Assembly (NCBI GenBank): GCA_050954865.1
Contig: JBPBQN010000160.1
Span: forward strand, 695-64,694
Direction: 5' to 3'
DNA: 64,000 bases
Source of the DNA: Janthinobacterium lividum
Lineage (GTDB): Bacteria; Bacteroidota; Bacteroidia; Sphingobacteriales; Sphingobacteriaceae
The notes beneath the pieces are model-generated. The model did not search any database. It had not been told where the DNA came from and worked only from the letters and a program-made list of their open reading frames with translations. Shown piece after piece: positions 2,345-19,259 of the stretch. A program made the translations under genes and the position numbers. Every line of letters begins with the position of its first letter. The first letter of the stretch is position 1.

Positions 2345-2381
2345 AAAAATAAGAAAAGGCGCTTTGCTTTTACAAAGTGCC
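2345..2381 (-). terminator. intrinsic terminator after the bS22-like gene
   Basis: On the minus strand, ggcactttg-taaaag-caaagcgcc (one G:U pair) is followed by ttttcttattttt. Confidence 0.6.
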
Positions 2382-2404
2382 CCAATCTTAAAAAAAGGAG
2401 TAAA

Positions 2405-2494: not shown

Positions 2495-2515
2495 AACTTC
2501 TTTTAATTAGATTAT

Positions 2516-3376: not shown

Positions 3377-3384
3377 GCTGAAAA

Positions 3385-3684
3385 TTATTTACCTGCTTTG
3401 CTTTTGTTACCAGTACGCACTTTTTCTACAAAAGTCTTTGCAGGTTTAAAACTCGGAATAAAATGTTCAGGAATGATGATTGCCGTGTTTTTGGAAATAT
3501 TGCGAGCTGTTTTCTTTGCCCGTTTTTTTACTACAAAACTACCAAAGCCACGCACGTAAACGTTTTCTCCACCAACCATTGCTCCTTTTACCACCTTAAA
3601 AAAGGCCTCAACTGTTTCTTGTACATCTACTTTTTCTATCCCGGTCTTGGTAGAAATTTCAGATATAATCTCTGCTTTAGTCAT
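3385..3684 (-). CDS. HU/IHF-family DNA-binding protein
   Basis: 99 aa. MTKAEIISEISTKTGIEKVDVQETVEAFF...VRGFGSFVVKKRAKKTARNISKNTAIIIPEHFIPSFKP is the classic HU fold signature, with a basic C-terminal tail. Confidence 0.85.
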   Translation of the reverse strand: MTKAEIISEISTKTGIEKVDVQETVEAFFKVVKGAMVGGENVYVRGFGSFVVKKRAKKTARNISKNTAIIIPEHFIPSFKPAKTFVEKVRTGNKSKAGK

Positions 3685-3733
3685 CTGCTCTCTGTTATTA
3701 TTTAATTGTAATACTATAGTTGTTTTGGGGTTG

Positions 3734-3741
3734 CAAAAGTA
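3734..3741 (-). promoter_or_regulatory. -7 box for the HU gene
   Basis: Minus strand TACTTTTG (TAnnTTTG), about 50 nt upstream of ATG 3684. Confidence 0.4.
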
Positions 3742-3806
3742 TTGCTTTAAAACGAAACAGCGAAAAAAAAACAGTTTTTTTTATTTACACATCTGCCTAA
3801 CAATGA

Positions 3807-3836
3807 TTTGGTTAAGGTTTTGACTACCTATTTTTG
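3807..3836 (+). promoter_or_regulatory. Bacteroidota-type promoter for mutY (near-leaderless)
   Basis: TTTG at 3807-3810, 18-nt spacer, TATTTTTG at 3829-3836. ATG follows at 3841. Confidence 0.5.
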
Positions 3837-3840
3837 CAGC

Positions 3841-4920
3841 ATGAATTGGAGTGAGGAAATACAAAACTGGTACCTGCAACACAAACGCAACCTGCCCTGG
3901 CGCAACACCACCGATGCTTATACCATCTGGCTTTCGGAAGTAATTTTACAGCAAACTCGGGTAGAACAAGGCATGCCGTATTTTTATCGTTTTCTGGAAA
4001 AATACCCCACGGTTACGGATTTTGCCAATGCTACAGAAGATGAAATTTTAAAACTCTGGCAAGGTTTGGGCTACTATTCGCGCGGAAGAAATATGTTGAC
4101 AACGGCACGGCAAATTGTAGCAAATAACAATAGCATTTTCCCAACAACGTATGAAGAACTGATCAAATTAAAAGGAATTGGAGAATATACCGCGGCCGCT
4201 ATTTCTTCGTTTGCTGCCGATGAAGTAAAAGCGGTGGTTGATGGCAACGTTTACCGCGTTTTGGCACGATGGTTTGGCATGGAAGAACCGATCAATTCTC
4301 CGGCCGGGAAAAAACTTTTTCAGGTTCTGGCAGATGAAGTTTTGGATCGAAATCATCCCGGCCAGCATAACCAGGCGATGATGGAATTTGGAGCGATGTT
4401 GTGCAAACCCAAAAATCCGGATTGTAAAATCTGTCCGGTTCGGGAAGCTTGCAACGCTTATCAAACCAAACGAATCCATTTATTGCCGGTGAAACTGAAA
4501 ACCGTAAAAATCCGCGAACGTTATTTTAATTATTTCTTGATTTCGCACCAAAACCAAATTTTACTCAATAAAAGAAGCATTGATGATATTTGGGCAAACC
4601 TGTACGATTTACCACTGATTGAAACGCTCAATTACACACCTGTTGAAGAATTGACTGCACTTCCAACGTTTAAACAGTTTTTTCGAGATCAGTCAACGAT
4701 TATTTCTGCTTCGCCGATTCGCAAACACATTCTTACGCACCAGCGTGTTTTTGCACATTTTATTCATCTGCAAGTTAATCCGCAGGAAATTAACATGCAG
4801 CCCAATTGGTTTTTTGCAGATTTGGAGGAATTGGAAAAACTGGCTTTACCAAAAATTATTGACCAGTTTTTGAAGGATTTTTTCCACTTAAACCAAATTC
4901 AAACAGAACTTTTATTTTGA
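3841..4920 (+). CDS. mutY: A/G-specific adenine DNA glycosylase MutY
   Basis: HhH-GPD core (LKGIGEYTAAAISSFA), a 4Fe-4S loop CKPKNPDCKICPVREAC, and a NUDIX-like C-terminal domain. I prefer ATG 3841 (MNWSEEIQNWY) to the track's TTG 3808, because a -7 box sits at 3829-3836. Confidence 0.9.
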   Translation: MNWSEEIQNWYLQHKRNLPWRNTTDAYTIWLSEVILQQTRVEQGMPYFYRFLEKYPTVTDFANATEDEILKLWQGLGYYSRGRNMLTTARQIVANNNSIFPTTYEELIKLKGIGEYTAAAISSFAADEVKAVVDGNVYRVLARWFGMEEPINSPAGKKLFQVLADEVLDRNHPGQHNQAMMEFGAMLCKPKNPDCKICPVREACNAYQTKRIHLLPVKLKTVKIRERYFNYFLISHQNQILLNKRSIDDIWANLYDLPLIETLNYTPVEELTALPTFKQFFRDQSTIISASPIRKHILTHQRVFAHFIHLQVNPQEINMQPNWFFADLEELEKLALPKIIDQFLKDFFHLNQIQTELLF

Positions 4921-4922
4921 TG

Positions 4923-4980
4923 AATTTAGGTCGATAAAAGAAGCATCATCAAATTAATGCTTCTTTTATCGCCTAAAAAT
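4923..4980. repeat. 25-mer family, convergent pair forming a hairpin between mutY and the DPP-IV gene
   Basis: aatttaggtcgataaaagaagcatc (4923-4947) and atgcttcttttatcgcctaaaaat (4957-4980). Probably acts as a bidirectional terminator. Confidence 0.8.
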
Positions 4981-7154
4981 TAGCGTGCGCCCGGCGGACA
5001 ATGTTCTTTTAAAAACTGTGTGTAAGTGCTGGCCAGGTGTCGGCTCGTCCCTGCTCCTTCCGAAATGGCGTGCGTTCTGTTTGGATAACTCATCAGCTGG
5101 AAAACTTTGTCATTTTTAATCAGCTCATTAATCATCTGCTCGGCGTTGTTATAATGCACGTTATCATCGCCTGTTCCATGGATGATCAGCAAATTGCCAC
5201 GCAGGTTTTTGGCGTGCGCTAACGGCGATCCATCTACAAAATAATGCTTGTCTTCCGGCAGCAAACCCATGTAACGTTCCTGATAAATGTTATCGTAATT
5301 GAGTTGATTATCCACCGCCGCAACAGAAATCCCGGTTTTATAAATTTCCGGATACTGAAACATCAGGTTCAAGGTTGATGATCCGCCACCACTCCAGCCC
5401 CAAACCGCAACGCGGCTCGTATCAACATAAGATCGTTTTAGAATTTCTTTTGCAGCCATCGCCTGATCACGAATATTGATCACACCAATATTATGGTAGA
5501 TGGATTTGCGCCACTCTCGGCCTTTTGGTGCCGGCGAACCACGGTTTTCTACTGAAGCATAGATGTAACCATCGCTGGCCATGTTGCCAATGTACAAGCG
5601 ATTGAAACCAGTGCCATAACTATCTGTAACCGTTTGACTTGCAGGCTCTCCGTAAACATAAAATACAATCGGGTACTTTTTAGTCGAATCAAAGTTGAGC
5701 GGTTTTACCATCCAGCCGTCCATCGTTACGCCATCTACTGTTTTTACCCTAAAAAATTCAGGTTTATTAACCGGAATAGTGCTTTTGCGTGGCACAGCGT
5801 TACCTAACGTTTGATGTTCTGGCAGAGAAACCACGTTTGATGTTGGATATGTGTAGCTGTTTGAAAAATAATGCAAAGCCACTTTCCCATTCGGCGAAAT
5901 ATCATAACTATGCGTTCCAGGTTCATCGTTTGGCGTTACACGTGCTGCTTTTCCGTTCCCATTTAAAGCAACTTTATATAGATATTTTTGGGTGGCATTT
6001 TCGGGCGAGGCCATAAAATAAATTAAACCGTTTTTCTCGTCGATGTCTTCAACACTGATTACATCAAAATCGCCTTTGGTCATTAATTTTTCCTGACCAT
6101 TTCTGCTGATATTATAGATGTGCCGCCAGCCGTCTTTTTCACTCAGCCATAAAAAACTTTTGCCCTGATCAACCCAATCCCAGCCAATCGCTTCTGGCTT
6201 GGCATCAATCCAGGCTTTATCGGTTTCTGTTGATACTGTTTTTACCGTACCAAATTTGGCATCGCAAAGCATGATTTTGCTTTCGTTTTGGCGGCGGTTT
6301 AATTGCTGAATGATCAGTTCCGATGAATTTGCGGCCCACTCCATCCGCGGAATATAATGCTGCACGTCATCGCCCGGAACTTTCATCCAAATATTTTTGC
6401 CAGTATTTATATTGATTACGCCAATTCTGCACCGGCTCGGATTTTCTCCAACCACCGGATATTCTACCGGAACTGTAAAAGGATACAAGGAATCGGTCGT
6501 GTTCAACATCAGATAACTTCGGGTTTTGTTAGCATCCAACTGCCAGTAAGCAATTGATTTTCCATCGGGCGACCAGCGGAAACCATCGCGGCAATCCAAT
6601 TCTTCTTCATAAACCCAATCAAAAGTGCCATTGATTAATTTTTTTGTTCCATCTAATGTAAGTTTAGAAACCTTACCGGAAACTAAATCCTCCGTAAAAA
6701 TATTGTGTTCGCTCACGTAAGCAACCTTTGATGCATCCGGAGAAAACTTGGCAAACATTAACGAAGAAACGGGACGCGCAACACCAATTTGTTTTAGAGT
6801 TTTGGCCGATAAATCTGCCACCCAATAATCTCCACGCGTATCATAACGCCAAACTTTTTTTGAATTGGTGTAGATTAAAACCTTTTTGCCATCATCAGAA
6901 AAAATAAAACTTCTAATTTTCAGGGGTTCTGTTCTACCTTTTGGAGTGAATAATTGTGCATCTACCAAAGTGGTTTGTTTGGATGGATCACTGATGGAAG
7001 TTTGTACAATAGAACCATCTTGTACTTGCATGTAATTATTTCCGTCTTTGGTCCATTTAATGCCAGAACCAAATTGAGCTTTAGACTCAAAAACAAAAAT
7101 TATTTGAAAAATTAAACTGATTAAAACCGCAAAAACGTGTGATTTTTGTTGCAT
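4980..7154 (-). CDS. S9B-family dipeptidyl peptidase IV-like serine peptidase (secreted)
   Basis: 724 aa. Signal peptide, DPP-IV type beta-propeller region, and nucleophile elbow VWGWSGGGS with a downstream GTGDDNVH. Confidence 0.85.
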   Translation of the reverse strand: MQQKSHVFAVLISLIFQIIFVFESKAQFGSGIKWTKDGNNYMQVQDGSIVQTSISDPSKQTTLVDAQLFTPKGRTEPLKIRSFIFSDDGKKVLIYTNSKKVWRYDTRGDYWVADLSAKTLKQIGVARPVSSLMFAKFSPDASKVAYVSEHNIFTEDLVSGKVSKLTLDGTKKLINGTFDWVYEEELDCRDGFRWSPDGKSIAYWQLDANKTRSYLMLNTTDSLYPFTVPVEYPVVGENPSRCRIGVININTGKNIWMKVPGDDVQHYIPRMEWAANSSELIIQQLNRRQNESKIMLCDAKFGTVKTVSTETDKAWIDAKPEAIGWDWVDQGKSFLWLSEKDGWRHIYNISRNGQEKLMTKGDFDVISVEDIDEKNGLIYFMASPENATQKYLYKVALNGNGKAARVTPNDEPGTHSYDISPNGKVALHYFSNSYTYPTSNVVSLPEHQTLGNAVPRKSTIPVNKPEFFRVKTVDGVTMDGWMVKPLNFDSTKKYPIVFYVYGEPASQTVTDSYGTGFNRLYIGNMASDGYIYASVENRGSPAPKGREWRKSIYHNIGVINIRDQAMAAKEILKRSYVDTSRVAVWGWSGGGSSTLNLMFQYPEIYKTGISVAAVDNQLNYDNIYQERYMGLLPEDKHYFVDGSPLAHAKNLRGNLLIIHGTGDDNVHYNNAEQMINELIKNDKVFQLMSYPNRTHAISEGAGTSRHLASTYTQFLKEHCPPGAR

Positions 7155-7165
7155 AAAAGAAGCAT
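7153..7165 (+). repeat. 25-mer family, partial copy overlapping the DPP-IV start codon
   Basis: ataaaagaagcat. Confidence 0.35.
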
Positions 7166-7314
7166 TGAGTTTGAAAATTATTGGAAACTACGACGAAACA
7201 AGCAGATTAAGGAACTTCATCATCAGATGCAATTTTAGCCAACACTTTCACAGTAAATTAAGGAGAAAAAAATATAATTACAGATTAAACAATTGTTTAA
7301 TCAAACGATCATTT

Positions 7315-7782
7315 TTAAGACAATAATTTTTGCCGAAGTAAGAATTCTAACTGGCCATTTGAAACAGCAAGTTTGTCGTTCATTTCTTTCAACTTTTGAT
7401 CTTCTTCGTACTTAGCATATGCCTTTTGAATGGTAGCATCCAACTCATCCTCGTTCCATGGTTTAGTTAGATAATGAAAAACTTTTCCTTTATTAACTGC
7501 CTCAATAACAGCACTTATATCAGTATAACCGGTTAGTAAAATACGCATCGGATCAGGGTATTTTTCCAATACTTTTTCTAAAAACTCGCTGCCCGACATG
7601 TTCGGCATACGCTGATCAGTAATAATGATTTCTACCGGTTCAGTTTCCAAAATACGTAATGCTTCGGCAGCATCAATAGCTGTAATTACCTGGTATTTTA
7701 GCCGGAAAACCGCTTTGAAAGAGATTAAATTATTTTCTTCATCATCAATAAAAAGAATATTTATTTTTTTTTCTGACATCAT
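7315..7782 (-). CDS. REC-only response regulator with a short C-terminal coiled coil
   Basis: 155 aa. ILFIDDEENN...IIITDQRMPNMSG...LLTGYTD...KPW receiver signature with no output domain. Roughly half its positions match the REC of 13044..14135 by eye. Divergent from the 7899 operon. Confidence 0.85.
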   Translation of the reverse strand: MMSEKKINILFIDDEENNLISFKAVFRLKYQVITAIDAAEALRILETEPVEIIITDQRMPNMSGSEFLEKVLEKYPDPMRILLTGYTDISAVIEAVNKGKVFHYLTKPWNEDELDATIQKAYAKYEEDQKLKEMNDKLAVSNGQLEFLLRQKLLS

Positions 7783-7898
7783 TAAAAAAGATTAATACCT
7801 TGTAAGAAGTTAAATGTAGAAAATAGAATTGAAAAAGATATTTTTTCTTACTACTCCTTAAAAAACACAACCTGACTTTAACTATATAAACTGACTTT

Positions 7899-10175
7899 AT
7901 GAATAAAGATGTTTACAAACCAGTATTTTTTAGATTGAATATTGCTGAAGAAAAACTACAGTATGAATTATTATTAAAATCCAATCCTTCAATTCAAATA
8001 TATGACGAGATTGAGGGGCAACTAAGAGAACTATTAAAAATATTAAGCCCTTCAATTAGAATCAAAACTGAAGATTATCCGGAGCTGGTAAAGAAACATA
8101 TTAATAATCAAGGTTTATTTGAGTATGGAGTTTGGGTATATTATCCATGGAGTAACAATTTAATACATTTATTAGATGAAGAAGAGTTTGTAGAAGTAAG
8201 AACTAATAGAAATAAATATAAAATCACACAAGAAGAACAAGAAATACTCCGAACAAAAAAAATTGGAATCGTTGGATTATCTGTTGGACAATCTATTGCT
8301 TTGACTTTGGCAATGGAAAGAACATGTGGAGAACTTCGGTTAGCCGATTTCGATGACGCGGAACTTAGTAATTTAAATCGTTTAAGAACAGGATTACATA
8401 ATTTAGGAACAAAAAAAACGATAATTGCAGCACGAGAGATTGCAGAGTTAGACCCATTTTTAAATGTTGTAGTTTTTAATGATGGATTACATGAAAATAA
8501 TTTTAATAATTTTTTTACTGATAATGGAAAGTTAGATCTACTTGTAGAGGTTTGTGATGGATTAGACATAAAGATTGAAAGCCGCTTTAAAGCACGAGAA
8601 CTTGGAATACCAGTTGTGATGGATACAAACGATCGCGGTATGTTAGATGTTGAAAGATTTGATTTGGAACACGAACGACCAATACTTCATGGGCTATTGG
8701 GGAAACTTGATTCCAAATCTCTAGCATCTCTTACAAATGAAGAAAAGATACCAATAATTTTAAAAATAGCAAATCTTGATACTATTTCATTAAGAGGCAA
8801 AGCTTCTATGATTGAAGTAGGACAATCAATATCTACGTGGCCACAATTAGCATCATCTGTTGTTTTGGGTGGTGCAGCTGTTACTGATATTGCTAGAAGA
8901 ATTTTTTTAAATCAGTTTAATTCTTCAGGTAGATATTACATAGATTTTGAAGATATCATTACTGATATACAACATAATAATATTTCACAAATAAATCAAA
9001 ATAAAAGGTCTGAGGTTTTTACAGATAATACTGCAAAATCATTAATATCGAAAACAAAAAATAAATTCCAAAATGTAAATAAAATAAGTTTAACAGAAAA
9101 TCAGCTAAGAGAAATTGTCCAAGCTGGTATAGCAGCACCATCAACAGGAAATGATCAACCTTGGAAATGGTATTATACTGATGATATACTTTACTTATTT
9201 CATATAGAGGCACGTTCAAAATCTTTTGGTAATTACAAAAATGTAGCATCGTATTTAACATTTGGTGCTGTTTATGAAAATGTTATACTTAAATCTCAAT
9301 GTTTATTTTTGAATTTAACTTCAGATATTTTTCCATTAGGATATAATGAACCTCTTGTTTTTTCATTTTGCTTTACTAATCAATTAGATTTAGATCATAA
9401 ACTACACCAATTTGATTATTTATCAAAATTCATTTTTTCTAGATCAACCAATAGAAATCCTTCAAAAAAATCATCTATTGAAAACTACATATTGAAAAAT
9501 CTAAAGGAAGTAACAGAATCGATTCATGAAGCCAACTTGTCTTTTATAACAAGTAAAGAGAAGATTGATACTATTGCTAGTATTATTGGTGCTTGTGACA
9601 AAATTCGAATTCTTAATAAGGATGGTCATTCCGATTTTGTAAACCGCGAAATGCGTTGGAATGAACAACATGTAAATCTTACAAAAGATGGAATTGATAT
9701 AAAAACTTTAGGACTTACTCCTTCACAAACATCTGCTTTAGAAATAATTAAAAGTTATAATATAATTGATTTTATAAAAAAAATTGAAGGTGGAAATGTA
9801 TTAAAAAATGCCAGTATAAAATCACTAGAAAATACACCGGTTATAGGTTTAATTTCAATGAAAAATTCTCTACCACTGGATTACATAAATGGCGGTCGGG
9901 CTTACGAGAGATTATGGTTAGCTTCTGAAAGTCACAGTCTAGCTTTATACCCTATGATCTCTCCGATTTATTTGTTTTTAAGGCTCGAAAACAAAAATAA
10001 TGATTTGTCAGAAAATGAAATAATATCACTAAAAAGCTTAAAGGAAACTTTTGATAATATTTTTCCGTTAAATAAAAAAGAAAATGGCATTTTCCTTTTT
10101 AAATTATCGTATGCAGAAAAACCTCTTATTAGATCTTTAAGAATACCCATTGATCAAGTTTTGACAAGAGTATAA
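7899..10175 (+). CDS. E1-like (ThiF/MoeB) adenylyltransferase domain fused to tandem nitroreductase-like domains (Rv1355c/MoeY-type architecture)
   Basis: 758 aa. Rossmann motif KKIGIVGLSVGQSIALTL followed by LRLADFDDAELSNLNRL (ThiF signature). C-terminal half has LTENQLREIVQAGIAAPSTGNDQPWKWYY (nitroreductase N-terminal signature) and a second SRSTNRNP-type segment. Confidence 0.7.
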   Translation: MNKDVYKPVFFRLNIAEEKLQYELLLKSNPSIQIYDEIEGQLRELLKILSPSIRIKTEDYPELVKKHINNQGLFEYGVWVYYPWSNNLIHLLDEEEFVEVRTNRNKYKITQEEQEILRTKKIGIVGLSVGQSIALTLAMERTCGELRLADFDDAELSNLNRLRTGLHNLGTKKTIIAAREIAELDPFLNVVVFNDGLHENNFNNFFTDNGKLDLLVEVCDGLDIKIESRFKARELGIPVVMDTNDRGMLDVERFDLEHERPILHGLLGKLDSKSLASLTNEEKIPIILKIANLDTISLRGKASMIEVGQSISTWPQLASSVVLGGAAVTDIARRIFLNQFNSSGRYYIDFEDIITDIQHNNISQINQNKRSEVFTDNTAKSLISKTKNKFQNVNKISLTENQLREIVQAGIAAPSTGNDQPWKWYYTDDILYLFHIEARSKSFGNYKNVASYLTFGAVYENVILKSQCLFLNLTSDIFPLGYNEPLVFSFCFTNQLDLDHKLHQFDYLSKFIFSRSTNRNPSKKSSIENYILKNLKEVTESIHEANLSFITSKEKIDTIASIIGACDKIRILNKDGHSDFVNREMRWNEQHVNLTKDGIDIKTLGLTPSQTSALEIIKSYNIIDFIKKIEGGNVLKNASIKSLENTPVIGLISMKNSLPLDYINGGRAYERLWLASESHSLALYPMISPIYLFLRLENKNNDLSENEIISLKSLKETFDNIFPLNKKENGIFLFKLSYAEKPLIRSLRIPIDQVLTRV

Positions 10176-10178
10176 TAT

Positions 10179-10877
10179 ATGAATACTCTTAACCTAAGTA
10201 TACGTGTGTTTAAAGCGACTGATGATTTAATAGCGTGTGAAAATTACATAAATCAACATATACGCGTTTTAGCTTCTTATGGTATTACAAAGTTATCATC
10301 CGCAAATACACAATGGAAGAACGACCCTAATTGTTATATAATTTTGTTTGAATCTGAAAACAAAACAAAAATATATGGAGGAGGTAGAATACAGATAAAA
10401 TCAGAGCATTTTAATTTGCCAATTGAAGAAGCTGTATCTGTTGTAGATAAAAATATTCATTCTTATGTTAAAAGAATAGGAAATTACAAAGTTGCAGAAT
10501 TTTGTGGTTTATGGAATTCAAGAGAAGTTGCAGGCTATGGAATCGGTAGTATAATTTTAGGTAGAATTGGTGTAGCAATTGCATCACAATTAAATTTAAA
10601 ACACTTAATGGCACTATGCTCACCAGCAACCTTACTTAATTGTACTAGGATTGGGTTTGAAGTAATATATGAACTTGGAAATAATGGAACTTTTTATTAT
10701 CCAAAAGAAGGACTTATTGCAACAGCATTAATAATAAAAAATATTGATCTCTTAGAAAAGGCCAATCCTAATGAGAGAAATTTAATTTATAGCTTGAGAG
10801 AGAAACCTATACAAAATTCAGTAGAAGCTGGACCAAAGGGAACTATGATAATTGATTATAATATTAGAATCTCTTGA
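10179..10877 (+). CDS. orphan 232-aa protein, possible GNAT-fold LuxI / N-acyl-amino-acid-synthase-like acyltransferase
   Basis: ATG lies 3 nt after the upstream stop. Motif order YIILFESENKTKIYGGGRIQI, then VAEFCGLW, then REVAGYGIGSIILG (R-x3-G-x-G-x-G, resembling GNAT motif A). The assignment is by pattern only. Confidence 0.35.
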   Translation: MNTLNLSIRVFKATDDLIACENYINQHIRVLASYGITKLSSANTQWKNDPNCYIILFESENKTKIYGGGRIQIKSEHFNLPIEEAVSVVDKNIHSYVKRIGNYKVAEFCGLWNSREVAGYGIGSIILGRIGVAIASQLNLKHLMALCSPATLLNCTRIGFEVIYELGNNGTFYYPKEGLIATALIIKNIDLLEKANPNERNLIYSLREKPIQNSVEAGPKGTMIIDYNIRIS

Positions 10878-13060
10878 TGATGAAAAATATTTTCTTGATC
10901 ATACTAATTCAACTTATTGTTTTAGTTACAAATTTTAATATTTATGCTAAAAACATAAATTATAAAGGTGGAAGATTATTGATTGGAAAGGAAATTGAGG
11001 TGTTTGAAGATAGATTCAACACTTACAATTTAAATAATGTTTTACAAAGTTCTAAATTTCAAAATAACAAACAATTGATTCCGAATTTCGACATTAGTAA
11101 TTCTAAATTTTGGATTAAATTTAAAGTAACTAATAATTATTATCAATCAAACTTATTTCTTGAGGTGGACAATGCTTTAATAAATATCTGTAATTTATAT
11201 ACATTAAAAAACAATCGGTTAACACTATTGGAATCTTTTGGAACAAATAAAATTTACAATCAACGAAAATACAAATACCCAGACTTTATTTTCGATTTAA
11301 ATATACCGATTGATTCAACGATAAGTTATGTTTTAGAAATAAAAAGTAATGATCAATTATTGGTTCCAATTAGCTTAAATTCTCCACAAGCAATAGCCGA
11401 ATTGCAAAACACGAAAGATATAATATCTGGTATTCATATCGGAGCTTTATTAGTCATGATATTTTATAATATTTTTATATATTTTTCAATTAGAGATAAA
11501 AGTTATATTTTTTATGTATTGTATATTACTTTTATTGGATTGACTCAGATTACATTAACAGGATACAGCTATAAATATTTGTTTTTTAATCATCCAACTA
11601 TATTCAAACTATGCATTGTAGTTGCTCCTTCTTTAGCAGGAATTAGTGCTGTTTACTTTATTAAATTTTTTTTAAATACAAAAGTATTAACGCCTACCTT
11701 AAACAAATTATTATATATTATTATATTTTTATATATTATTGCTTTATCCTTAAGAGTAGTTGGACAAGATCAACTAAGTTCAAGAGCGATTGACATAACT
11801 GCTCTTTTTGTTGCTGTAATAGTTTATTGTATCGCAATAAAACTTACAATGAAAAATTATCGGCCAGCCAAGTTTTTTTTATTTGCTTGGTCTTTGTTTA
11901 TTGTTGGTCTAATTTTGTTTGTTTTAAGAAATTTAAATATTCTCCCTGATAATAGCTATACAAATTATACAATGCAAGTAGGTACTGTTTTAGAAGTTAC
12001 TTTATTATCGGTAGCCCTCGCCGATAAAATAAACATTTACAAAAAAGAAAAAGAACTTTCCCAAGCAGCAACATTATCTGCTTTACAAGAAAATGATCGA
12101 ATTATTCGCGAACAAAACAGTACTCTAGAACGTAAAGTGAATGAACGAACAAACGAATTGGTTGCAACAAACAACAACTTAAATAAAACTTTAACTGACT
12201 TGAAAGAAACACAAACGCAATTGGTAGAAGCAGAAAAGATGGCTTCGTTAGGACAACTTACTGCTGGTATTGCGCATGAAATTAATAATCCTATCAATTT
12301 TGTTACATCTAATGTTGCACCATTAAGACGAGATGTGGATATTTTAGTTGATGCAATTATAAACATAGAATCTTTAGGTTTATCTGAAGTATCCACAGAC
12401 GAAAAACAACAACAAATTGAAGATTATAAAGAAGAGATTGACCTTGATTATTTGAAAATAGAAATTAATCACTTGTTAAATGGTATTCATGAAGGTGCTA
12501 CCAGAACGGCTGATATTGTGAAAGGATTAAAAATATTTTCACGTTTAGATGAAGATGATCTAAAAAAAGCAGATATTAATGAAGGTTTACAATCTACCTT
12601 AACTATTGCAAATAATTTGATTGGAAACAAAATACAAGTTATCAAAAACTTTGGAAATATTCCGTTAATTGAATGCTTTCCCGGTAAATTAAATCAGGTA
12701 TTTTTAAATATGATTTCTAATGCCGTATTTGCAATTCAGGAAAAATTTACCAATCAGGCTGGTGGCATTTTAAAAATTACAACCAGCAATAATGATCAGT
12801 ATCTAACTATAAAAATAGACGATAATGGTACAGGAATGAGCGAGGCTACAAAAAAGAAAATATTTGAGCCTTTTTTTACGACTAAAAATGTTGGTGTAGG
12901 TACTGGTTTAGGTATGTCTATTGCTTACAATACTATCAAAAAGCATAACGCAGAAATTTATCTAAACTCTACCGAAGGAGTTGGTACTGAATTTATAATA
13001 CAACTAAACTTGGTTTTTAAAGAACCAGTAGCAGATTATCAAAGTGAGCAACAAGGATAA
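10877..13060 (+). CDS. 7TMR-DISM family sensor histidine kinase
   Basis: Signal peptide, a ~150-aa extracytoplasmic domain and seven predicted TM helices (about residues 185-385). Then a coiled coil, H-box LTAGIAHEINNPINF, and HATPase boxes NMISNA, DDNGTGM, GVGTGLGMS. ATG 10877 overlaps the upstream TGA; the track starts at TTG 10874. Confidence 0.8.
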   Translation: MMKNIFLIILIQLIVLVTNFNIYAKNINYKGGRLLIGKEIEVFEDRFNTYNLNNVLQSSKFQNNKQLIPNFDISNSKFWIKFKVTNNYYQSNLFLEVDNALINICNLYTLKNNRLTLLESFGTNKIYNQRKYKYPDFIFDLNIPIDSTISYVLEIKSNDQLLVPISLNSPQAIAELQNTKDIISGIHIGALLVMIFYNIFIYFSIRDKSYIFYVLYITFIGLTQITLTGYSYKYLFFNHPTIFKLCIVVAPSLAGISAVYFIKFFLNTKVLTPTLNKLLYIIIFLYIIALSLRVVGQDQLSSRAIDITALFVAVIVYCIAIKLTMKNYRPAKFFLFAWSLFIVGLILFVLRNLNILPDNSYTNYTMQVGTVLEVTLLSVALADKINIYKKEKELSQAATLSALQENDRIIREQNSTLERKVNERTNELVATNNNLNKTLTDLKETQTQLVEAEKMASLGQLTAGIAHEINNPINFVTSNVAPLRRDVDILVDAIINIESLGLSEVSTDEKQQQIEDYKEEIDLDYLKIEINHLLNGIHEGATRTADIVKGLKIFSRLDEDDLKKADINEGLQSTLTIANNLIGNKIQVIKNFGNIPLIECFPGKLNQVFLNMISNAVFAIQEKFTNQAGGILKITTSNNDQYLTIKIDDNGTGMSEATKKKIFEPFFTTKNVGVGTGLGMSIAYNTIKKHNAEIYLNSTEGVGTEFIIQLNLVFKEPVADYQSEQQG

Positions 13061-14135
13061 AATCAAGATTTTATATTTAGACGATGAAATCAACAATTTG
13101 GTTGGATTTAAAGCATCTTTTAGAGTAGATTATAATATTTTAATTGCTAACAACAGCGCAGAAGCATATCAGCAATTAGAGAAACATAAAGATATTCGTA
13201 TCATCTTCTGTGATCAGCGCATGCCAGACCAAACTGGTGTAGAGTTTTTTGAAGAAATTAGAAATATTTATCCGCTTCCAATTCGCATTTTATTAACAGG
13301 ATATACTGATATAGAATCTGTTATTGAATCGATTAATAGAGGTAATATTTTTAGATATGTTAAAAAACCTTGGGCAACAGAAGAAATTGTATCCAGCATT
13401 GATCAGGCTAACAAGTTCTACACCGTTAACTCAATGCTTTCTGTTAAAAATGTTGAGTTACAAAAAGCTTACAATGAGTTAGAAAAGTTTGCCTACAGTG
13501 TAACACACGATATCCGAGGTCCATTACTAAGCATTTTAGGTGCAACTGATGTAGCACAATACATTGATGATATTGGAGAGATCAAAGAAATGTTGCGGCT
13601 GATGGAAAAATCAGTTAAAAAACTTGATGCTTTTATCCTGAATATTCATGATTATTATAGTTTAAAACAAGGTGAACTTCAAATTAAAGATGTAAAACTG
13701 GAAGATATTGTTAAAGATCAAATAGAAAATTTTAAGGTTACGACCACTATAAAAAACATTACGTTTACAACGCATGTAGAACAAAACGAACCTTTCAGAA
13801 CTGATGAAGTATCACTTAAAATTATACTAAACAATCTGCTTTCAAATGCTTTTAAATATCAGCAAAAAAACAATGCTGATAAACGTGTTGATTTGGATAT
13901 CCAAGTAAAAAAAGGAATTGCAATTATTCAAATAAAAGATAACGGAATAGGTATTTTAGAAAAACATATAGGTGATATATTTAATATGTTTTTTAGAGCA
14001 ACTGCGGAAGAAGTTGGATCTGGAATTGGATTGTATAATGTTAATGATGCTGTTACAAAGTTAGCCGGAGAGATAAAGGTAACTTCTGTTTTTAATGAAG
14101 GAACAACTTTTTTAATCACAATACCCACAAGATAA
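13044..14135 (+). CDS. hybrid REC-HisKA-HATPase histidine kinase
   Basis: GTG start overlaps the upstream gene by 17 nt. REC domain (ILYLDDEINN...IIFCDQRMPDQTG...KPW), H-box YSVTHDIRGPL, N-box LLSNAFKY, G-boxes DNGIGI and GSGIGL. Confidence 0.85.
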   Translation: MSNKDKIKILYLDDEINNLVGFKASFRVDYNILIANNSAEAYQQLEKHKDIRIIFCDQRMPDQTGVEFFEEIRNIYPLPIRILLTGYTDIESVIESINRGNIFRYVKKPWATEEIVSSIDQANKFYTVNSMLSVKNVELQKAYNELEKFAYSVTHDIRGPLLSILGATDVAQYIDDIGEIKEMLRLMEKSVKKLDAFILNIHDYYSLKQGELQIKDVKLEDIVKDQIENFKVTTTIKNITFTTHVEQNEPFRTDEVSLKIILNNLLSNAFKYQQKNNADKRVDLDIQVKKGIAIIQIKDNGIGILEKHIGDIFNMFFRATAEEVGSGIGLYNVNDAVTKLAGEIKVTSVFNEGTTFLITIPTR

Positions 14136-14136
14136 T

Positions 14137-14538
14137 ATGCCACAAACTACTAATGTTATTATTATAGATGATAGTGTAGAAGATTGTTATCTGATCAAAA
14201 AAAGATTAAAAAATTTAGATTTAAATGTAAATGTTATTTCATTTTCTAACGGCCTGGAAGCATACAATTATTTGACTGATATTAATTTAAACTCATCTCA
14301 TTCATCAGCTAAAAACATAATTATTTTAGATATATACATGCCGTTGATGGATGGATTTGAATTTGTAGAAGAGTTTGAGAAACTACCAACAACTATCCAA
14401 AAGCAATATACAATTTGTGCTTTAACTTCTTCAGTATGGAAAAGCAATATGGAAAGAATGGTAAGTTATAAATCTATAAAATCATTTTTAGAGAAGCCAA
14501 TTAAAACAGAAAGTTTGTTAGAACTGATTGAAAGTTAG
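14137..14538 (+). CDS. REC-only response regulator
   Basis: 133 aa. VIIIDDSVEDCYL...IILDIYMPLMDGFEF...EKP receiver signature with no output domain. Starts 1 nt after the upstream stop. Confidence 0.8.
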   Translation: MPQTTNVIIIDDSVEDCYLIKKRLKNLDLNVNVISFSNGLEAYNYLTDINLNSSHSSAKNIIILDIYMPLMDGFEFVEEFEKLPTTIQKQYTICALTSSVWKSNMERMVSYKSIKSFLEKPIKTESLLELIES

Positions 14539-14548
14539 ATAATATTAC

Positions 14549-14562
14549 ATGCTTCTTTTAGC
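14549..14562 (-). repeat. 25-mer family, partial copy
   Basis: atgcttcttttagc. Confidence 0.4.
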
Positions 14563-14595
14563 AACAAAAAGTTGCAAGTAAATTTAATCATTTAC

Positions 14596-14620
14596 AATTT
14601 TAGGCGATAAAAGAAGTATC
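14596..14620 (+). repeat. 25-mer family copy
   Basis: aattttaggcgataaaagaagtatc. Confidence 0.7.
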
Positions 14621-14643
14621 TGAATTTGCAAAAGTTATGATGC

Positions 14644-14680
14644 AAAAAGAGCATTCTTAAAATTTAAGAATGCTCTTTTT
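14644..14680. terminator. bidirectional terminator between the island operon (+) and pyk (-)
   Basis: Perfect 37-nt palindrome aaaaagagcattcttaaa-a-tttaagaatgctcttttt, with a U-run on both strands. Confidence 0.75.
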
Positions 14681-14698
14681 ATTAATATAAATTATAAG

Positions 14699-16132
14699 TT
14701 AGATTGTACTAACCTTAATCATGTTAGTTCTTCCTTTTTTCTCCATTGGGATGGCTGCAGTATTAATTACAACATCACCTTCTTCTACCAGGTTCTGGCT
14801 TTTTAAAATGGCGTTGATTTCTTCGATAGTTCCATCGGTAGAATTGGTATCAAATTTATCGTAATAAAAACCTCTAACACCCCAAAGTAAGCTTAAAGTT
14901 CTAAGCAAATGGCGGTTTCTGGTGAAGATAAAGGTATTTGCTTTTGGGCGGTGACTGGAGATTTCAAACGCAGTATAACCAGAAGATGTCATGGTTACAA
15001 TCCCGGCTGCATTGGTATGTTCAGAAAGATAAACAGCAGAACTGCAAACTGCATCAGACAAAACCGTAGAAGATTGTTCATTAACCGGTTTTGGTGTATG
15101 GAAAGGATAACCAAACTCTTCTACATTTTTGATGATTTTTTGCATCGTCTCGATTACAATCACCGGATATTCTCCAACAGAAGTTTCGCCACTCAGCATT
15201 ACTGCATCTGCACCGTCTAAAACGGAGTTGGCTACATCATTTACTTCTGCACGGGTTGGGCGCGGCGTAGTGATCATGCTTTCCAGCATTTGAGTGGCTA
15301 CAATTACAGGTTTGGAAGCTGCACGACATTTACGTGCAATCATTTTTTGTAACAACGGCACCTGCTCCATCGGCATTTCAACACCTAAATCACCACGGGC
15401 AACCATTACGCCATCTGTTGCTGCAATAATAGCATCAATATGTTCTATCGCTTCGGGTTTTTCAACTTTAGCAATTACTCTTGCAGATTTGCCGCTGCGG
15501 CTGATGATGCGTTTCAAATCAACAATATCTTCCGCATTACGCACAAAGGACAAGCCGATCCACTCTATATCGTTTTTTAAGGCAAAATCCAGGTTAAACA
15601 AATCTTCTTCTGTTAAACTTGGGATAGAAACTTTAGTATTTGGCAAATTAACACCTTTACGGGAAGTTAAAATTCCACCATAAACCACTTCGCACACTAC
15701 AGTATCACGATTGTTGGTTTCTTTCACTTTCATTTGCAACTTTCCGTCATCCAGCAAAATCATTTCACCGGCAACTACATCTTTCGGGAAACTTTCATAA
15801 GTGATGTAAATCTGGTTTTCATCACCGATACATTCTTTGGTAGTCATGTTGATGGTTTTTCCGTTAATTAACTGGATACCACCTTCTTTAACCATACCAA
15901 TCCTGATTTTCGGTCCTTGCAAATCAGCCAAAATACCGACATTTAACTTATACTGATCGTTAATTTCGCGGATATTATCAATCGCTATCTGATGGTCTGC
16001 TTGTTTTCCATGAGAGAAATTCAATCTGCAAACGTTAACACCTGCCCGAATTAAAGATAACAGCATTTCTTTTTGCGACGAAACCGGCCCAAGCGTGGCA
16101 ACTATCTTAGTTCTTTTGTGCGAAATTTTCAT
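14699..16132 (-). CDS. pyk: pyruvate kinase
   Basis: 477 aa. KIVATLGP, NFSHG, MVARGDLGVE and VIVATQMLESM motifs. Confidence 0.95.
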   Translation of the reverse strand: MKISHKRTKIVATLGPVSSQKEMLLSLIRAGVNVCRLNFSHGKQADHQIAIDNIREINDQYKLNVGILADLQGPKIRIGMVKEGGIQLINGKTINMTTKECIGDENQIYITYESFPKDVVAGEMILLDDGKLQMKVKETNNRDTVVCEVVYGGILTSRKGVNLPNTKVSIPSLTEEDLFNLDFALKNDIEWIGLSFVRNAEDIVDLKRIISRSGKSARVIAKVEKPEAIEHIDAIIAATDGVMVARGDLGVEMPMEQVPLLQKMIARKCRAASKPVIVATQMLESMITTPRPTRAEVNDVANSVLDGADAVMLSGETSVGEYPVIVIETMQKIIKNVEEFGYPFHTPKPVNEQSSTVLSDAVCSSAVYLSEHTNAAGIVTMTSSGYTAFEISSHRPKANTFIFTRNRHLLRTLSLLWGVRGFYYDKFDTNSTDGTIEEINAILKSQNLVEEGDVVINTAAIPMEKKGRTNMIKVSTI

Positions 16133-16159
16133 GTATTTGTAATAAGTTTTAATTTTATC

Positions 16160-16184
16160 GTGCTTCTTTTATCAGAACAAAATT
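16160..16184 (-). repeat. 25-mer family copy
   Basis: gtgcttcttttatcagaacaaaatt. Confidence 0.6.
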
Positions 16185-16215
16185 AGTGTAATTTTCACAC
16201 TAAGAATGAAATTGT

Positions 16216-16635
16216 TTAAAATAAGAGGTTTTCGTTAGATTTGATTTTCTTCGGATCAACACGAACTACCTTTTTAATATTTTCTATCTGCTTTAAACGG
16301 CAAATCATGTTGCCCAGATCTTCATCATCAAAATGATTTTTAATCAGCATAAAATAATTCACGCTTGCCATTTCCGGAATTAAAAAACCGGCTGCACCGC
16401 GGTTGGCAATAATATAAAATTCTGTTTCGAATGTTTTAATTTGATAAAAATACTGCGAAAACTGCATCGGCTCGTTGCCCGCAAACAAGTTTAGTTCGTA
16501 ATCATTAACCTTCCTGAAATCCGCATTAAGTTCTTTGTTGATGTGATAGCAAAGCCGATAATCTTTTAATTGCGATGTAATTGCGATTAAAATAAAATCC
16601 AGATCTAACTCAAAACTTAGTATTCTCCTGTTCAA
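16216..16635 (-). CDS. IPExxxVDY-family protein (Bacteroidota-specific, function unknown)
   Basis: 139 aa. Contains FLIPEMASVNYF, matching the family's name motif. Lies divergent from acpP. Confidence 0.6.
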   Translation of the reverse strand: MNRRILSFELDLDFILIAITSQLKDYRLCYHINKELNADFRKVNDYELNLFAGNEPMQFSQYFYQIKTFETEFYIIANRGAAGFLIPEMASVNYFMLIKNHFDDEDLGNMICRLKQIENIKKVVRVDPKKIKSNENLLF

Positions 16636-16736
16636 CTCTATAAATTATAAATTATTTTTACACTACAAATGAAACTATAAATAGCTTTACGGTATTACGC
16701 TTTTACTAATAAATTTTAATTTTTGGTGCAAAAAAA

Positions 16737-16790
16737 CATCGATAAAAACAGCATTTAAATTGCAGCATATTTAGGCGCGGTAAAAGTGAT
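16737..16790 (+). repeat. 25-mer family, two tandem copies upstream of acpP
   Basis: catcgataaaaacagcat and atatttaggcgcggtaaaagtgat. Confidence 0.5.
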
Positions 16791-16861
16791 TGTTAGATTT
16801 GATATTTGATTTAATTTATTTTTCTTTGCACAGATTTATTTAACCCATAAAAACTAAGACT

Positions 16862-17098
16862 ATGTCTGATATCGCTTCCAGAGTAAAAGCAATTATCGTA
16901 GAAAAATTAGGTGTTGACGAGAACGAAGTTACGCCAGAGGCAAGTTTCACTAATGATTTAGGTGCAGATTCTTTGGATACTGTAGAACTGATCATGGAAT
17001 TTGAAAAAGAATTTAATGTAGCCATCCCTGATGATCAGGCAGAAAACATTGGCACTGTAGGCCAGGCTATTGCTTACCTGGAAAAAAACGTTAAATAG
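16862..17098 (+). CDS. acpP: acyl carrier protein
   Basis: 78 aa with the phosphopantetheine site [11 protein letters not shown]. Confidence 0.95.
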
Positions 17099-17116
17099 TA
17101 GCGCTTTTACAATTAA

Positions 17117-18370
17117 ATGGAGTTAAAAAGAGTAGTTGTAACAGGTCTTGGCGCACTTACTCCGATTGGTAATAATGTTCCGGCTTATTGGAATGCTTTG
17201 CTTGCCGGAGTAAGTGGTGCTGACTTCATTAAAAGTTTCGACACTAGCAAATTTAAAACCAAGTTTGCCTGTGAAGTAAAAAACTTTTCTGCGGAGGAAA
17301 TTTTTGGCAGAAAAGAAGCACGTAAAATGGATCCTTTTGTTCATTATGCGATGTTTGCAGTGGACGAAGCAGTACGCGATGCCAATCTGGATTTTCCCAA
17401 TCTTGATACCAACCGCATTGGTGTGATTTGGGGTGCAGGTATTGGCGGATTAAAAACTTTTTTAGATGAAGTTTCCAACTTTGCAAAAGGTGATGGAACA
17501 CCACGTTATAATCCGTACTTTATTCCAAAAATGATTTTGGACATTGCTCCTGGCCATATTTCTATCAAGTATGGCCTGCGCGGCCCGAATTTTTCTACCG
17601 TTTCTGCTTGTGCTTCTGGTACAAATGCATTGATTGATTCTTTCAATTACATTCGCTTAGGTACTGCGGATGTACTCATTTCCGGTGGTTCTGAAGCCAT
17701 TATTAATGAAGCTGGAATGGGCGGATTTAATGCCATGCACGCTTTATCTACCAGAAATGATGATCCAAAAACAGCATCGCGCCCTTTTGACAAAGACCGT
17801 GATGGTTTTGTAGCCGGCGAAGGTGCAGGTGCGCTCATTTTAGAAAGTTTGGAACATGCCAAAGCTCGTGGTGCAAAAATTTATGCAGAACTGATTGGCG
17901 GTGGCATGAGTGCCGATGCAAATCATATAACTGCTCCGCATCCGGAAGGTTTAGGTGCAAGATTGGTGATGACGAATGCTTTGCGTGATGCCAACCTGAC
18001 TACCAGCGACATTGATTACATTAACGTTCATGGCACTTCTACTCAATTGGGCGATATCAGCGAAACCAAAGCTATCGTAAGCTTATTTGGAGAAGATGCT
18101 TATAAATTAAACATTAGTTCTACCAAATCTATGACTGGCCACTTGCTTGGTGCAGCCGGTGCCATCGAAGCTATTGCATCCGTTTTAGCTGTACAAAATG
18201 ACATTATTCCGCCAACAATAAACCATTTTACAGATGATCCGGAGTTTGATCCGCAATTAAACTTCACTTTTAATCAGGCACAAAAACGCCTGGTGCGCAC
18301 AGCTCAAAGCAATACATTTGGCTTTGGTGGCCATAATGCTTCAGTTATTTTCAAAAAATACGAAGAATAG
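17117..18370 (+). CDS. fabF: beta-ketoacyl-ACP synthase II
   Basis: 417 aa. Active-site Cys in VSACASG, HGTSTQLGD, and GHLLGAAG. Confidence 0.95.
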   Translation: MELKRVVVTGLGALTPIGNNVPAYWNALLAGVSGADFIKSFDTSKFKTKFACEVKNFSAEEIFGRKEARKMDPFVHYAMFAVDEAVRDANLDFPNLDTNRIGVIWGAGIGGLKTFLDEVSNFAKGDGTPRYNPYFIPKMILDIAPGHISIKYGLRGPNFSTVSACASGTNALIDSFNYIRLGTADVLISGGSEAIINEAGMGGFNAMHALSTRNDDPKTASRPFDKDRDGFVAGEGAGALILESLEHAKARGAKIYAELIGGGMSADANHITAPHPEGLGARLVMTNALRDANLTTSDIDYINVHGTSTQLGDISETKAIVSLFGEDAYKLNISSTKSMTGHLLGAAGAIEAIASVLAVQNDIIPPTINHFTDDPEFDPQLNFTFNQAQKRLVRTAQSNTFGFGGHNASVIFKKYEE

Positions 18371-18375
18371 CCTTA

Positions 18376-19101: not shown

Positions 19102-19116
19102 CTCACATTATCTTTG

Positions 19117-19230
19117 TTGTTATTTTGACCGAAGGGAGAAATCCTATTCCAATAAACCAATTTTTTGCCAATAAAAGAAGTATTGTACAAATCACTTCAA
19201 AGAAGCTTTCCTCCTGTGGTCGAAATGACA
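19117..19230. mobile_element. MITE-like hairpin element, family 1 (GTCATTTCGACC termini), degenerate copy
   Basis: Left arm tgttattttgaccgaagggagaaatcc. Right arm gctttcctcctgtggtcgaaatgaca. The loop carries a 25-mer repeat copy. Lies just after the rnc stop. Confidence 0.55.
19161..19184 (+). repeat. 25-mer family copy inside a MITE loop
   Basis: ttttttgccaataaaagaagtatt. Confidence 0.5.
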
Positions 19231-19259
19231 AAACCGAGAATCTAACTAAAACACTTCTT

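Follow-up and report, generated by a model that had tools for sequence, protein, structure and literature searches.

The window analyzed here is the whole 64,000-nucleotide (nt) stretch of contig JBPBQN010000160.1 (positions 695 to 64,694, assembly GCA_050954865.1, labeled Janthinobacterium lividum). Between positions 7315 and 14538 it holds a six-gene island in which a predicted oxazolone-forming enzyme and a putative acyltransferase stand beside a 7TMR-DISM sensor histidine kinase and its phosphorelay. Five of the genes lie on the + strand, and a gene for a stand-alone receiver (REC) protein diverges from them. A preliminary description of this DNA, made from the letters alone, had placed the six open reading frames (ORFs), their junctions and the divergent REC gene exactly as we read them from the sequence. 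The island and the terminator behind it comprise the following features (lengths in amino acids, aa).

7315..7782, - strand: REC0, a stand-alone receiver of 155 aa (PF00072, E 4.8e-20; phospho-acceptor D56)
7783..7898, no strand: divergent intergenic (promoter) region of 116 nt, read from the sequence
7899..10175, + strand: gene 1, predicted TrzS/OxzB-type enzyme of 758 aa (full-length match to NF005901)
10179..10877, + strand: gene 2, putative acyltransferase of 232 aa (fold match from an AlphaFold2 (AF2) model and Foldseek)
10877..13060, + strand: 7TMR-DISM sensor histidine kinase, by its domains (PF07695, PF07696, PF02518)
13044..14135, + strand: hybrid kinase REC-HisKA-HATPase_c of 363 aa (GTG start; D57, H155)
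14137..14538, + strand: REC5, a stand-alone receiver of 133 aa (PF00072, E 2.4e-12; D65)
14644..14680, no strand: bidirectional intrinsic terminator (17-bp perfect hairpin, with an A-run before and a T-run after)

The + strand genes are tightly packed. Genes 1 and 2 are joined by TAA-TAT-ATG, a 3-nt gap read from the sequence, and gene 2 meets the kinase gene in a TGATG, where the ATG at 10877 overlaps the TGA stop; an alternative in-frame kinase start is the TTG at 10874. The GTG start of the hybrid kinase gene overlaps the kinase gene by 17 nt, and the REC5 gene starts after a gap of 1 nt. The hairpin at 14644-14680 (dG -20.3 kcal/mol, z -5.05; none of 200 shuffles was equally stable) sits between REC5 and a convergent pyruvate kinase gene and closes the operon. 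It was found by separate folding, having been overlooked by a general terminator scan whose single match lies inside the hybrid kinase gene and is probably due to chance. Tight junctions recur across 63 other loci, with -4 to +6 nt between the acyltransferase gene and its partner in most. The analysis supports the proposal of the preliminary description that all five genes on the + strand belong to a single coupled operon.

Gene 1 matches the NCBIfam equivalog NF005901 (‘Rv1355c family protein’) with 783.1 bits against a cut-off of 476, and the alignment pairs residues 3-756 with model positions 8-719 of 722. The protein is predicted to fuse a ThiF-like ATP-dependent cyclase (approximately residues 1-360, nt 7899-8978) to an Acg-like flavin-dependent oxidase (FDO; approximately residues 396-758, nt 9084-10172), and its alignment to a Rhodococcus protein annotated as Rv1355c family is collinear (E 6e-115, 32% identity across 680 aa). 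The ThiF Gly-loop, the motif ADFD..L.N.NR and the pair C219-D220 are invariant in 66 of 66 Bacteroidota orthologues, and the C219-D220 region aligns with ‘ECDSFD’ of the Rhodococcus protein. Rv1355c is TrzS, characterized in December 2025 (Kleetz et al. 2025, PMC12856293), in which the mutation D217A abolishes cyclization (PMC12856293); by motif and numbering, D220 of gene 1 would correspond to this residue. TrzS residues R540 and Q651 belong to the pocket of the flavin mononucleotide (FMN) oxidase (PMC12856293), and gene 1 D567-K568-I569-R570 aligns with DRIR 538-541 of the Rhodococcus sequence, which is not the M. smegmatis TrzS. The FMN motif S415..N418.QPW422 and RxTNR at 515-519 are conserved among the gene 1 orthologues. 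The FDO half is nonetheless the fastest-evolving part of the cassette (mean pairwise distance 0.63), and the Acg-family model scores 78 bits on gene 1, below its cut-off of 199. A model of ThiF-nitroreductase fusions, NF011424, which may represent the OxzB type, gives 217 bits, far under its cut-off of 1170. By sequence, we assign gene 1 to the TrzS/Rv1355c family.

Relatives of this enzyme vary in both halves. The oxidase half is detected only by the full-length family model in Dyadobacter tibetensis (L008, 7764-10004), and in D. jejuensis (L018, 8103-10004) the C-terminal 267 aa match nothing; in some lineages this half seems to be in decay or in transition to another function. The Kitasatospora plasmid NZ_CP108248.1 (L091, 6239-9123) and the Streptomyces plasmids H13-H15 encode a 616-aa protein whose C-terminal ThiF half shares 42-47% identity with the E1 half of the window’s enzyme, more than the 32% of mycobacterial TrzS. 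A gene for a ketoacyl-acyl carrier protein (ACP) synthase III lies downstream of it, with a LuxR-type regulator nearby, and a comparison of the N-terminal 255 aa of the Kitasatospora protein with the 232-aa family showed no relationship (hhalign E 0.19).

For the product of gene 2, the preliminary description had suggested a GNAT/LuxI-type protein. The 232-aa sequence has no Pfam or NCBIfam match at E <= 0.1, including to PF00765 and PF13444, no PADLOC match, and none among PDB sequences by phmmer or by a family profile, so this suggestion was testable by structure only. An AF2 model built from a 40-sequence alignment (pLDDT 90.8, pTM 0.88) has as its top Foldseek match FeeM (2g0b, E 4e-8), with a query-normalized TM-score of 0.58-0.60 and a target-normalized one of 0.69-0.74. 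FeeM is followed by the coenzyme A (CoA)-dependent N-acyl-homoserine lactone (AHL) synthases BjaI and MesI and then by EsaI, TofI, LasI and RpaI, and ordinary acetyltransferases give lower TM-scores than these. As modeled, the protein has the fold of N-acyl amino acid synthases and AHL synthases. The fold suggestion therefore stands. We do not file the protein as LuxI, because it lacks a PF00765 match and its similarity to AHL synthases is structural and ranks below that to FeeM. Like FeeM/NasY-type and LuxI-type synthases, it is predicted to adopt an alpha/beta/alpha GNAT-related fold, with a motif-A-like loop (‘AGYGIGS’) and, on the central strand, a glutamate (E107) that is invariant in the family. 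It differs from them in having no sequence-profile match to PF00765, to PF13444 or to any solved structure, and in an extra C-terminal helix and beta-hairpin, where the motifs YYPKE and GPKG are invariant. The family is tightly conserved, has no existing profile and contains more than 1300 clusters at 90% identity (552 representatives at 50%). One protein, P0228, fuses ThiF to the acyltransferase.

Elsewhere, the 232-aa domain is occasionally fused to TIR_2, leucine-rich repeats (LRR), an Mrr-type nuclease, ThiF or HATPase (P0146, P0149, P0233, P0228, P0188; L082, 269-1981). Fusion to TIR, LRR or nuclease domains may point to a distinct role of the domain in proteins of the conflict or immunity type. 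They also lend something to an account of the island as a conflict, defense or peptide- or protein-modifying E1 system of the kind of microcin C MccB/MccE, TOMM C/B or an anti-phage module, as do the weak E1-E2 matches that PADLOC returned for the ThiF domain (E 1e-5 to 1e-3) and the known pairing of MccB (E1-like) with MccE (GNAT). We nevertheless regard this account as highly improbable, given that gene 1 passes the equivalog for TrzS, a small-molecule enzyme, that the modeled acyltransferase fold is nearest to N-acyl amino acid and AHL synthases rather than to RimL/MccE-type GNATs, and that the other five island proteins have no PADLOC matches of note. The island contains no YcaO, E2, JAB or ubiquitin-like genes. 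A microcin-C-like or TOMM-like peptide system was rejected on the lack of a precursor ORF in the 116-nt leader and of YcaO, together with the TrzS equivalog, and an anti-phage defense system was rejected because the PADLOC matches were just weak, generic E1 matches.

The two enzymes fall within a recently described chemistry. TrzA (Rv1356c), encoded by the gene adjoining trzS, makes N-acyl-tryptophan, and TrzAS of Mycobacterium tuberculosis, M. smegmatis and Rhodococcus jostii directs N-acyl tryptazolone biosynthesis (PMC12856293). This logic was demonstrated first with OxzA/OxzB from Pseudoalteromonas rubra (bioRxiv 10.1101/2020.06.11.147165) and with TyzA/B/C of M. tuberculosis (PMC10404671), and the trio formed by N-acyl amino acid synthase, ThiF protein and nitroreductase is, in three other phyla, a recognized route to oxazolones and N-acyl dehydrotyrosines (PMC12479983). 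N-acyl oxazolones and N-acyl dehydro-amino acids came to light only between 2021 and 2025, in Proteobacteria, Actinomycetota (including M. tuberculosis) and Planctomycetota. The island shares with TrzAS the NF005901 family, the fusion of a ThiF cyclase to an FDO, the conserved Asp of the ATP site, the FMN motif and the presence in the operon of a neighboring gene for a small acyltransferase; it differs in that its acyltransferase belongs to a different sequence family, alike in fold only, and in that gene 1 is just 32% identical to the actinobacterial enzymes. With OxzAB and TyzACB it shares the activities, predicted here, of a synthase for N-acyl amino acids, a ThiF-like cyclase and a nitroreductase-family desaturase. 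Gene 1 resembles OxzB in being a ThiF-nitroreductase fusion, and FeeM and BjaI are the closest solved structures both of the 232-aa protein and, as reported, of TyzA (PMC10404671). The preliminary description had matched the gene combination to no named system; with NF005901 passed, the enzyme pair can be recognized as that of the OxzAB/TrzAS/TyzACB pathway, of which the enzyme half of the island is, judged by sequence, a new and divergent member. Because the gene pair corresponds to these systems, it is likely to yield, by way of an N-acyl amino acid, either an N-acyl oxazolone or an N-acyl dehydro-amino acid.

What distinguishes the island from these relatives is its signaling half. No signaling genes have been reported beside oxzAB or tyzACB, and actinobacterial TrzAS loci have no hard-wired kinase relay, their neighbors being GGDEF/EAL genes (M. 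tuberculosis and one Rhodococcus plasmid) or P450/TetR genes. The role of oxazolones has been called ‘a major unresolved question’ by the authors of the oxazolone-pathway papers, who only speculated on signaling, pointing to the cyclic di-GMP (c-di-GMP) genes beside M. tuberculosis trzAS. This neighborhood is not general for actinobacterial trzS homologues, with GGDEF on one plasmid and P450/TetR on two others. The first of these, from Rhodococcus qingshengii (L090, 2820-7022), carries an Rv1355c-family gene, a divergent gene for a 252-aa hypothetical protein and a GGDEF-domain gene; on the two mycobacterial plasmids, the neighbors of the Rv1355c-family gene encode P450, TetR and dienelactone hydrolase. 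Among the papers searched, we found no report that couples oxazolone or N-acyl amino acid enzymes to a 7TMR-DISM kinase relay, and the four key oxazolone-pathway papers make no mention of Bacteroidota carriers or of kinases.

The kinase encoded downstream of gene 2 matches PF07695 (E 1.4e-46, 159.5 bits), PF07696 (E 3e-23, 82.7 bits) and PF02518 (E 4.5e-19, 69.4 bits), and HisKA is also present. Its parts are arranged as follows.

10889-10945, + strand: signal anchor (hydropathy)
approximately 10985-11377, + strand: periplasmic 7TMR-DISMED2 domain (PF07696)
approximately 11417-12028, + strand: seven-transmembrane (7TM) bundle (PF07695)
approximately 12686-13012, + strand: HATPase_c domain (PF02518)

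With an intact H-box (H467 in ‘AHEINNP’), the protein is by its domains a 7TMR-DISM sensor histidine kinase, and the phospho-acceptors of the relay are all intact (kinase H467, hybrid kinase D57 and H155, REC0 D56, REC5 D65). Pfam and NCBIfam searches uphold every domain assignment made earlier for the island, namely ThiF plus an Acg/nitroreductase-like domain, the 7TMR-DISM kinase, the hybrid kinase and the two REC proteins. RetS and LadS of Pseudomonas aeruginosa have the same core architecture of DISMED2, 7TM and kinase; they are orphan hybrid kinases without a linked small-molecule synthase, whereas the subfamily of the island kinase is defined by its linkage to the acyltransferase. The LuxM/LuxN and CqsA/CqsS pairs also resemble the island in placing a gene for the synthase of a lipophilic molecule beside that of a polytopic histidine kinase, with a phosphorelay that lacks a local transcription factor. 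Because none of these four proteins is homologous to the island’s, and chemistry, sensor family and phylum differ, this comparison is one of analogy only; the single island match to the LuxN model was REC5, with 25 bits against a cut-off of 1550, and the synthase gave no match.

The remaining relay proteins are also retained. The hybrid kinase is kept at 40-64% identity in all loci with enough downstream sequence, and REC0 is present and divergent in nearly all loci (50-69% identity). REC5 was found in cassettes of the Dyadobacter and Chitinophagales types; none was detected in Algoriphagus/Litoribacter or in one clade from fresh water. REC0 ends in a helix-like, strongly conserved C-terminal tail that reads ...QLEFLLRQKLLS in the window (7315-7440) and ...QLEFLLRQ(K/Q/N)LLS in distant lineages (compared with L036, 9146-9622, and L058, 8067-8540), and this tail may be a docking motif for a partner protein. 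The signaling proteins of the island include no DNA-binding or enzymatic output domain, so the output must run through partner proteins encoded elsewhere.

The linkage of enzymes and kinase extends far beyond the window. In a forward scan of approximately 185,000 genomes, each representing one species, 236 held relatives of the 232-aa protein, and the best 80 loci were analyzed by tblastn and ORFs. A 7TMR-DISM kinase stands beside the enzymes in 79 of the 80; in the exception (L041), the contig ends 1.1 kb downstream, inside a gene for a flavin adenine dinucleotide (FAD) oxidase. In all informative loci the kinase gene lies directly downstream of the gene for the acyltransferase or for the tailoring enzyme. 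All six genes occur in the order of the window in 36 loci, the last REC gene alone is missing in 17, and the order acyltransferase, ThiF-FDO, kinase occurs in five. The tailoring enzyme varies as well: a ThiF-only protein is found in L051, L055 and L058, and a degenerate oxidase half in L008 and L018. Six Chitinophagales genomes without ThiF-FDO have a 539-aa FAD_binding_4 (PF01565) oxidase between acyltransferase and kinase (L036 at 10704-12323, L041, L056, L060, L067 and L079; distantly L140), which implies that tailoring there follows another chemistry on an otherwise unchanged cassette. Every one of these variants comes with the hybrid kinase and the divergent REC gene, and acyltransferases at 29-40% identity are still found with a divergent REC, a ThiF or ThiF-FDO protein and a 7TMR-DISM kinase.

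The same association was recovered from the side of the sensor. An alignment of the kinase sensor half was scanned against metagenome contigs, and the best 80 of 566 relatives were retained (33-59% identity). At least 900 nt of upstream sequence made 69 of these loci informative, and an acyltransferase, called by the family profile at E < 1e-5, was present in 65 of them. Two of the four exceptions have a ThiF-FDO gene that abuts the kinase up to the contig edge, equivalent to the swapped gene order, and the other two have less than 1.2 kb upstream. Among the genome and metagenome loci examined, we found no clean case of a sensor without a synthase or of a synthase without a sensor. The co-occurrence of the enzyme pair with the kinase, anticipated in the preliminary description, thus holds in both directions and in synteny; the linkage is family-wide, and its recurrence is far beyond chance. 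A more intimate association was seen once, on a single metagenomic contig (L081, 4174-6867), where the acyltransferase is fused in frame to a 7TMR-DISM kinase (P0251). Because this protein has no membrane segment between the two parts, has lost the YYPKE and GPKG motifs and is known from one contig, we did not rely on it as a ‘Rosetta stone’; the copy may be in decay or wrongly assembled.

The cassette does not keep its surroundings. Its GC content in the window is 0.290 (7315-14538), compared with 0.385 in the 5-kb flanks (2315-7314 and 14539-19538); this dip is the largest among 63 carriers (mean dip 2.1 points), and in 60 of 63 loci the flanks are poorer in AT than the cassette. The window’s flanking genes are housekeeping genes (mutY, an S9 peptidase gene, pyk, an IPExxxVDY-family gene, fabF and rnc), none of which lies within 10 kb of the cassette in 80 other genomes. 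With no conserved flanks and an AT-richer cassette in 60 of 63 loci, the cassette behaves as a relocating unit, and the GC dip and flanks in the window suggest that the island is such a unit and possibly a recent acquisition. A search of plasmids with the 232-aa protein gave no match. In NCBI, an identical 232-aa protein is attributed to a metagenome-assembled genome labeled Janthinobacterium lividum, and other carriers are labeled Rickettsiales, Azovibrio restrictus and Vulcanococcus limneticus; because the remaining relatives are Bacteroidota, the bins with these four labels are probably contaminated or mislabeled.

Searches of the noncoding sequence were less informative. A sigma-70 promoter scan gave 39 sites against 47 in shuffled sequence, which is below the shuffled level and uninformative. 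The 116-nt divergent spacer contains no short peptide ORF and no TAnnTTTG (the Bacteroidota -7 motif), a search of the divergent promoter regions for an operator conserved across lineages found none that is universal, and an Rfam search of the whole window returned nothing. The promoter region upstream of the ThiF-FDO gene does hold a clade-specific conserved motif, TATTTATATTGCGCTAAAAATAAT, in L015, L020, L027, L028 and L029, which form one freshwater Bacteroidia clade; the motif occurs neither in the window nor in other lineages.

To compare the evolution of the cassette’s parts, pairwise distances were calculated for seven of them across 58 loci. Distances for the kinase core, the hybrid kinase and REC0 intercorrelate at r = 0.96-0.98, with REC0 at 0.96-0.97 to the other two, whereas the sensor half correlates with the FDO at 0.90, with the acyltransferase at 0.87 and with its own kinase core at 0.83. 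In partial Mantel tests with the three cytoplasmic parts controlled, the sensor remains associated with the FDO (0.77) and the acyltransferase (0.70; permutation p <= 5e-4), and the association of the kinase core with the enzyme parts falls to approximately 0 when the sensor is controlled. This pattern holds under Poisson correction, with ranks, with a quadratic control and in 23 dereplicated lineages (r = 0.45-0.70). The ThiF domain, whose chemistry is generic, follows the background rather than the sensor, and the residual link of the sensor to the acyltransferase resides in the 7TM bundle (0.62) and not in DISMED2 (-0.11 with 7TM controlled). A recombination breakpoint cannot explain the two blocks, because REC0, at the left end, groups with the genes of the right end. 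The co-divergence of the sensor half, chiefly of the 7TM bundle, with the enzymes favors a reading as cognate signal and receptor, and we treat it as suggestive because the tests ignore phylogeny. The linkage, kept even where the cassette has been rearranged, favors the same reading.

The main rival to the signal/receptor reading turns the relation around: the relay would sense an unrelated cue, such as a polysaccharide through DISMED2 or envelope stress, and would control an oxazolone made as an antibiotic, surfactant or stress lipid. Regulators often adjoin biosynthetic genes, the REC-only proteins could act on the enzymes directly, and DISMED2 is conserved and shows some co-divergence with the FDO domain. 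Antibiotics induce oxazolone production in proteobacteria, for which a stress role has been proposed (PMC12856293; bioRxiv 10.1101/2020.06.11.147165), and related N-acyl tyrosines are antimicrobial and alter biofilms (PMC12856293; PMC12479983). The enzymes, however, appear to share a transcript with the kinases instead of lying under their control, and no DNA-binding output is encoded. Nor does this account predict that the sensor half, the 7TM bundle above all, should diverge in step with the specificity domains (acyltransferase and FDO) when the kinase core fails to do so, or that the sensor should have changed most where the tailoring enzyme was swapped. We consider it a serious but rather unlikely explanation.

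In a second alternative, the product stays in the producer as a membrane lipid, and the 7TM kinase monitors its level or the state of the membrane in a homeostatic circuit. The concentration of co-variation in the 7TM bundle and the lack of an exporter in the island would fit such a circuit, and actinobacterial oxazolones are mainly cell-associated (PMC12856293; PMC10404671). Bacteroidota make many N-acyl amino-acid membrane lipids (PMC12479983). Yet the cassette is rare (236 of approximately 185,000 species genomes), its mobile-island behavior, with a GC dip and no conserved flanks, would be unusual for core membrane homeostasis, and swaps of the tailoring enzyme, matched by divergence of the sensor, are more suggestive of diversifying specificity. 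Membrane feedback therefore seems improbable to us.

We propose instead that the island is a self-contained module that makes a molecule and senses it, a proposal for which we judge the evidence to be evenly poised. In a first step, which the fold and the context make probable, the 232-aa enzyme would transfer a fatty acyl group from acyl-CoA or acyl-ACP onto the amino group of an amino acid to give an N-acyl amino acid. The second step is still better founded, through the membership of gene 1 in the characterized TrzS family, and is very likely: the ThiF half would adenylate the free carboxylate and cyclize the molecule to an oxazolone, and the fused flavin oxidase would desaturate it with O2, the product being an N-acyl oxazolone that can be hydrolyzed to an N-acyl dehydro-amino acid. 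Known oxazolones are similar to AHLs and, at pH 8, are hydrolyzed in a matter of hours (bioRxiv 10.1101/2020.06.11.147165; PMC12856293), a chemistry that would suit a signal. In the third step, the small, lipophilic and water-labile product would leave the cell and be read by the presumably co-transcribed 7TMR-DISM kinase, most likely in the 7TM bundle; comparative genomics brings this step close to an even chance, or slightly short of it. Domain logic and the intact phospho-sites suggest a fourth, in which the kinase would phosphorylate the receiver of the hybrid kinase, REC0 or both, and the hybrid kinase would hand phosphate to REC5. Lineages that vary the tailoring enzyme (ThiF-FDO, ThiF alone or FAD oxidase) and whose sensor has diverged in step would then speak different signal ‘dialects’.

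Several points weigh against this proposal. 7TMR-DISMED2 is generally seen as carbohydrate-binding-like, and the known inputs of the DISM family are non-lipid (Ca2+ for LadS and glutamate for NicD). The island encodes no exporter, and the cassette contains no transcription factor, so that no autoinduction loop is visible. The substrates of the acyltransferase are read from fold and context, and its family has no detectable homology to the protein at the TrzA position in Rhodococcus (hhalign E 0.77); sharing the fold without a sequence relation, the two would be separate families within one structural class. When sequences are related, tests of the Mantel type, here with no phylogeny correction, overstate significance, and the co-divergence could stem from shared lineage-specific rate shifts rather than from matching of ligand and receptor. 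In Actinobacteria, where oxazolones are mostly cell-associated, the N-acyl-Trp intermediate alone accumulated outside the cells (PMC12856293), and de Rond et al. observed no phenotype when oxazolones were added to producer strains (bioRxiv 10.1101/2020.06.11.147165).

Oxazolone systems have so far lacked a candidate receptor, and this cassette supplies one, in the same operon and in hundreds of genomes, with a ligand-facing half that evolves in step with the synthase. The pairing makes the question of what oxazolones do open to direct experiment. It is plausible, although we hold it tentatively, that Cytophagales and Chitinophagales carry a dedicated form of cell-cell signaling, with an N-acyl oxazolone or dehydro-amino-acid autoinducer from a FeeM-like synthase and a TrzS-type enzyme, a receptor in the 7TM bundle and dialects set by swaps of the tailoring enzyme. 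To our knowledge, quorum-sensing-type circuits are poorly defined in Bacteroidota. If true, bacterial oxazolones would gain a first physiological role, the family of 7TMR-DISM receptors would have its first ligand that is a small-molecule lipid, and Bacteroidota would possess a native circuit of the quorum-sensing type.

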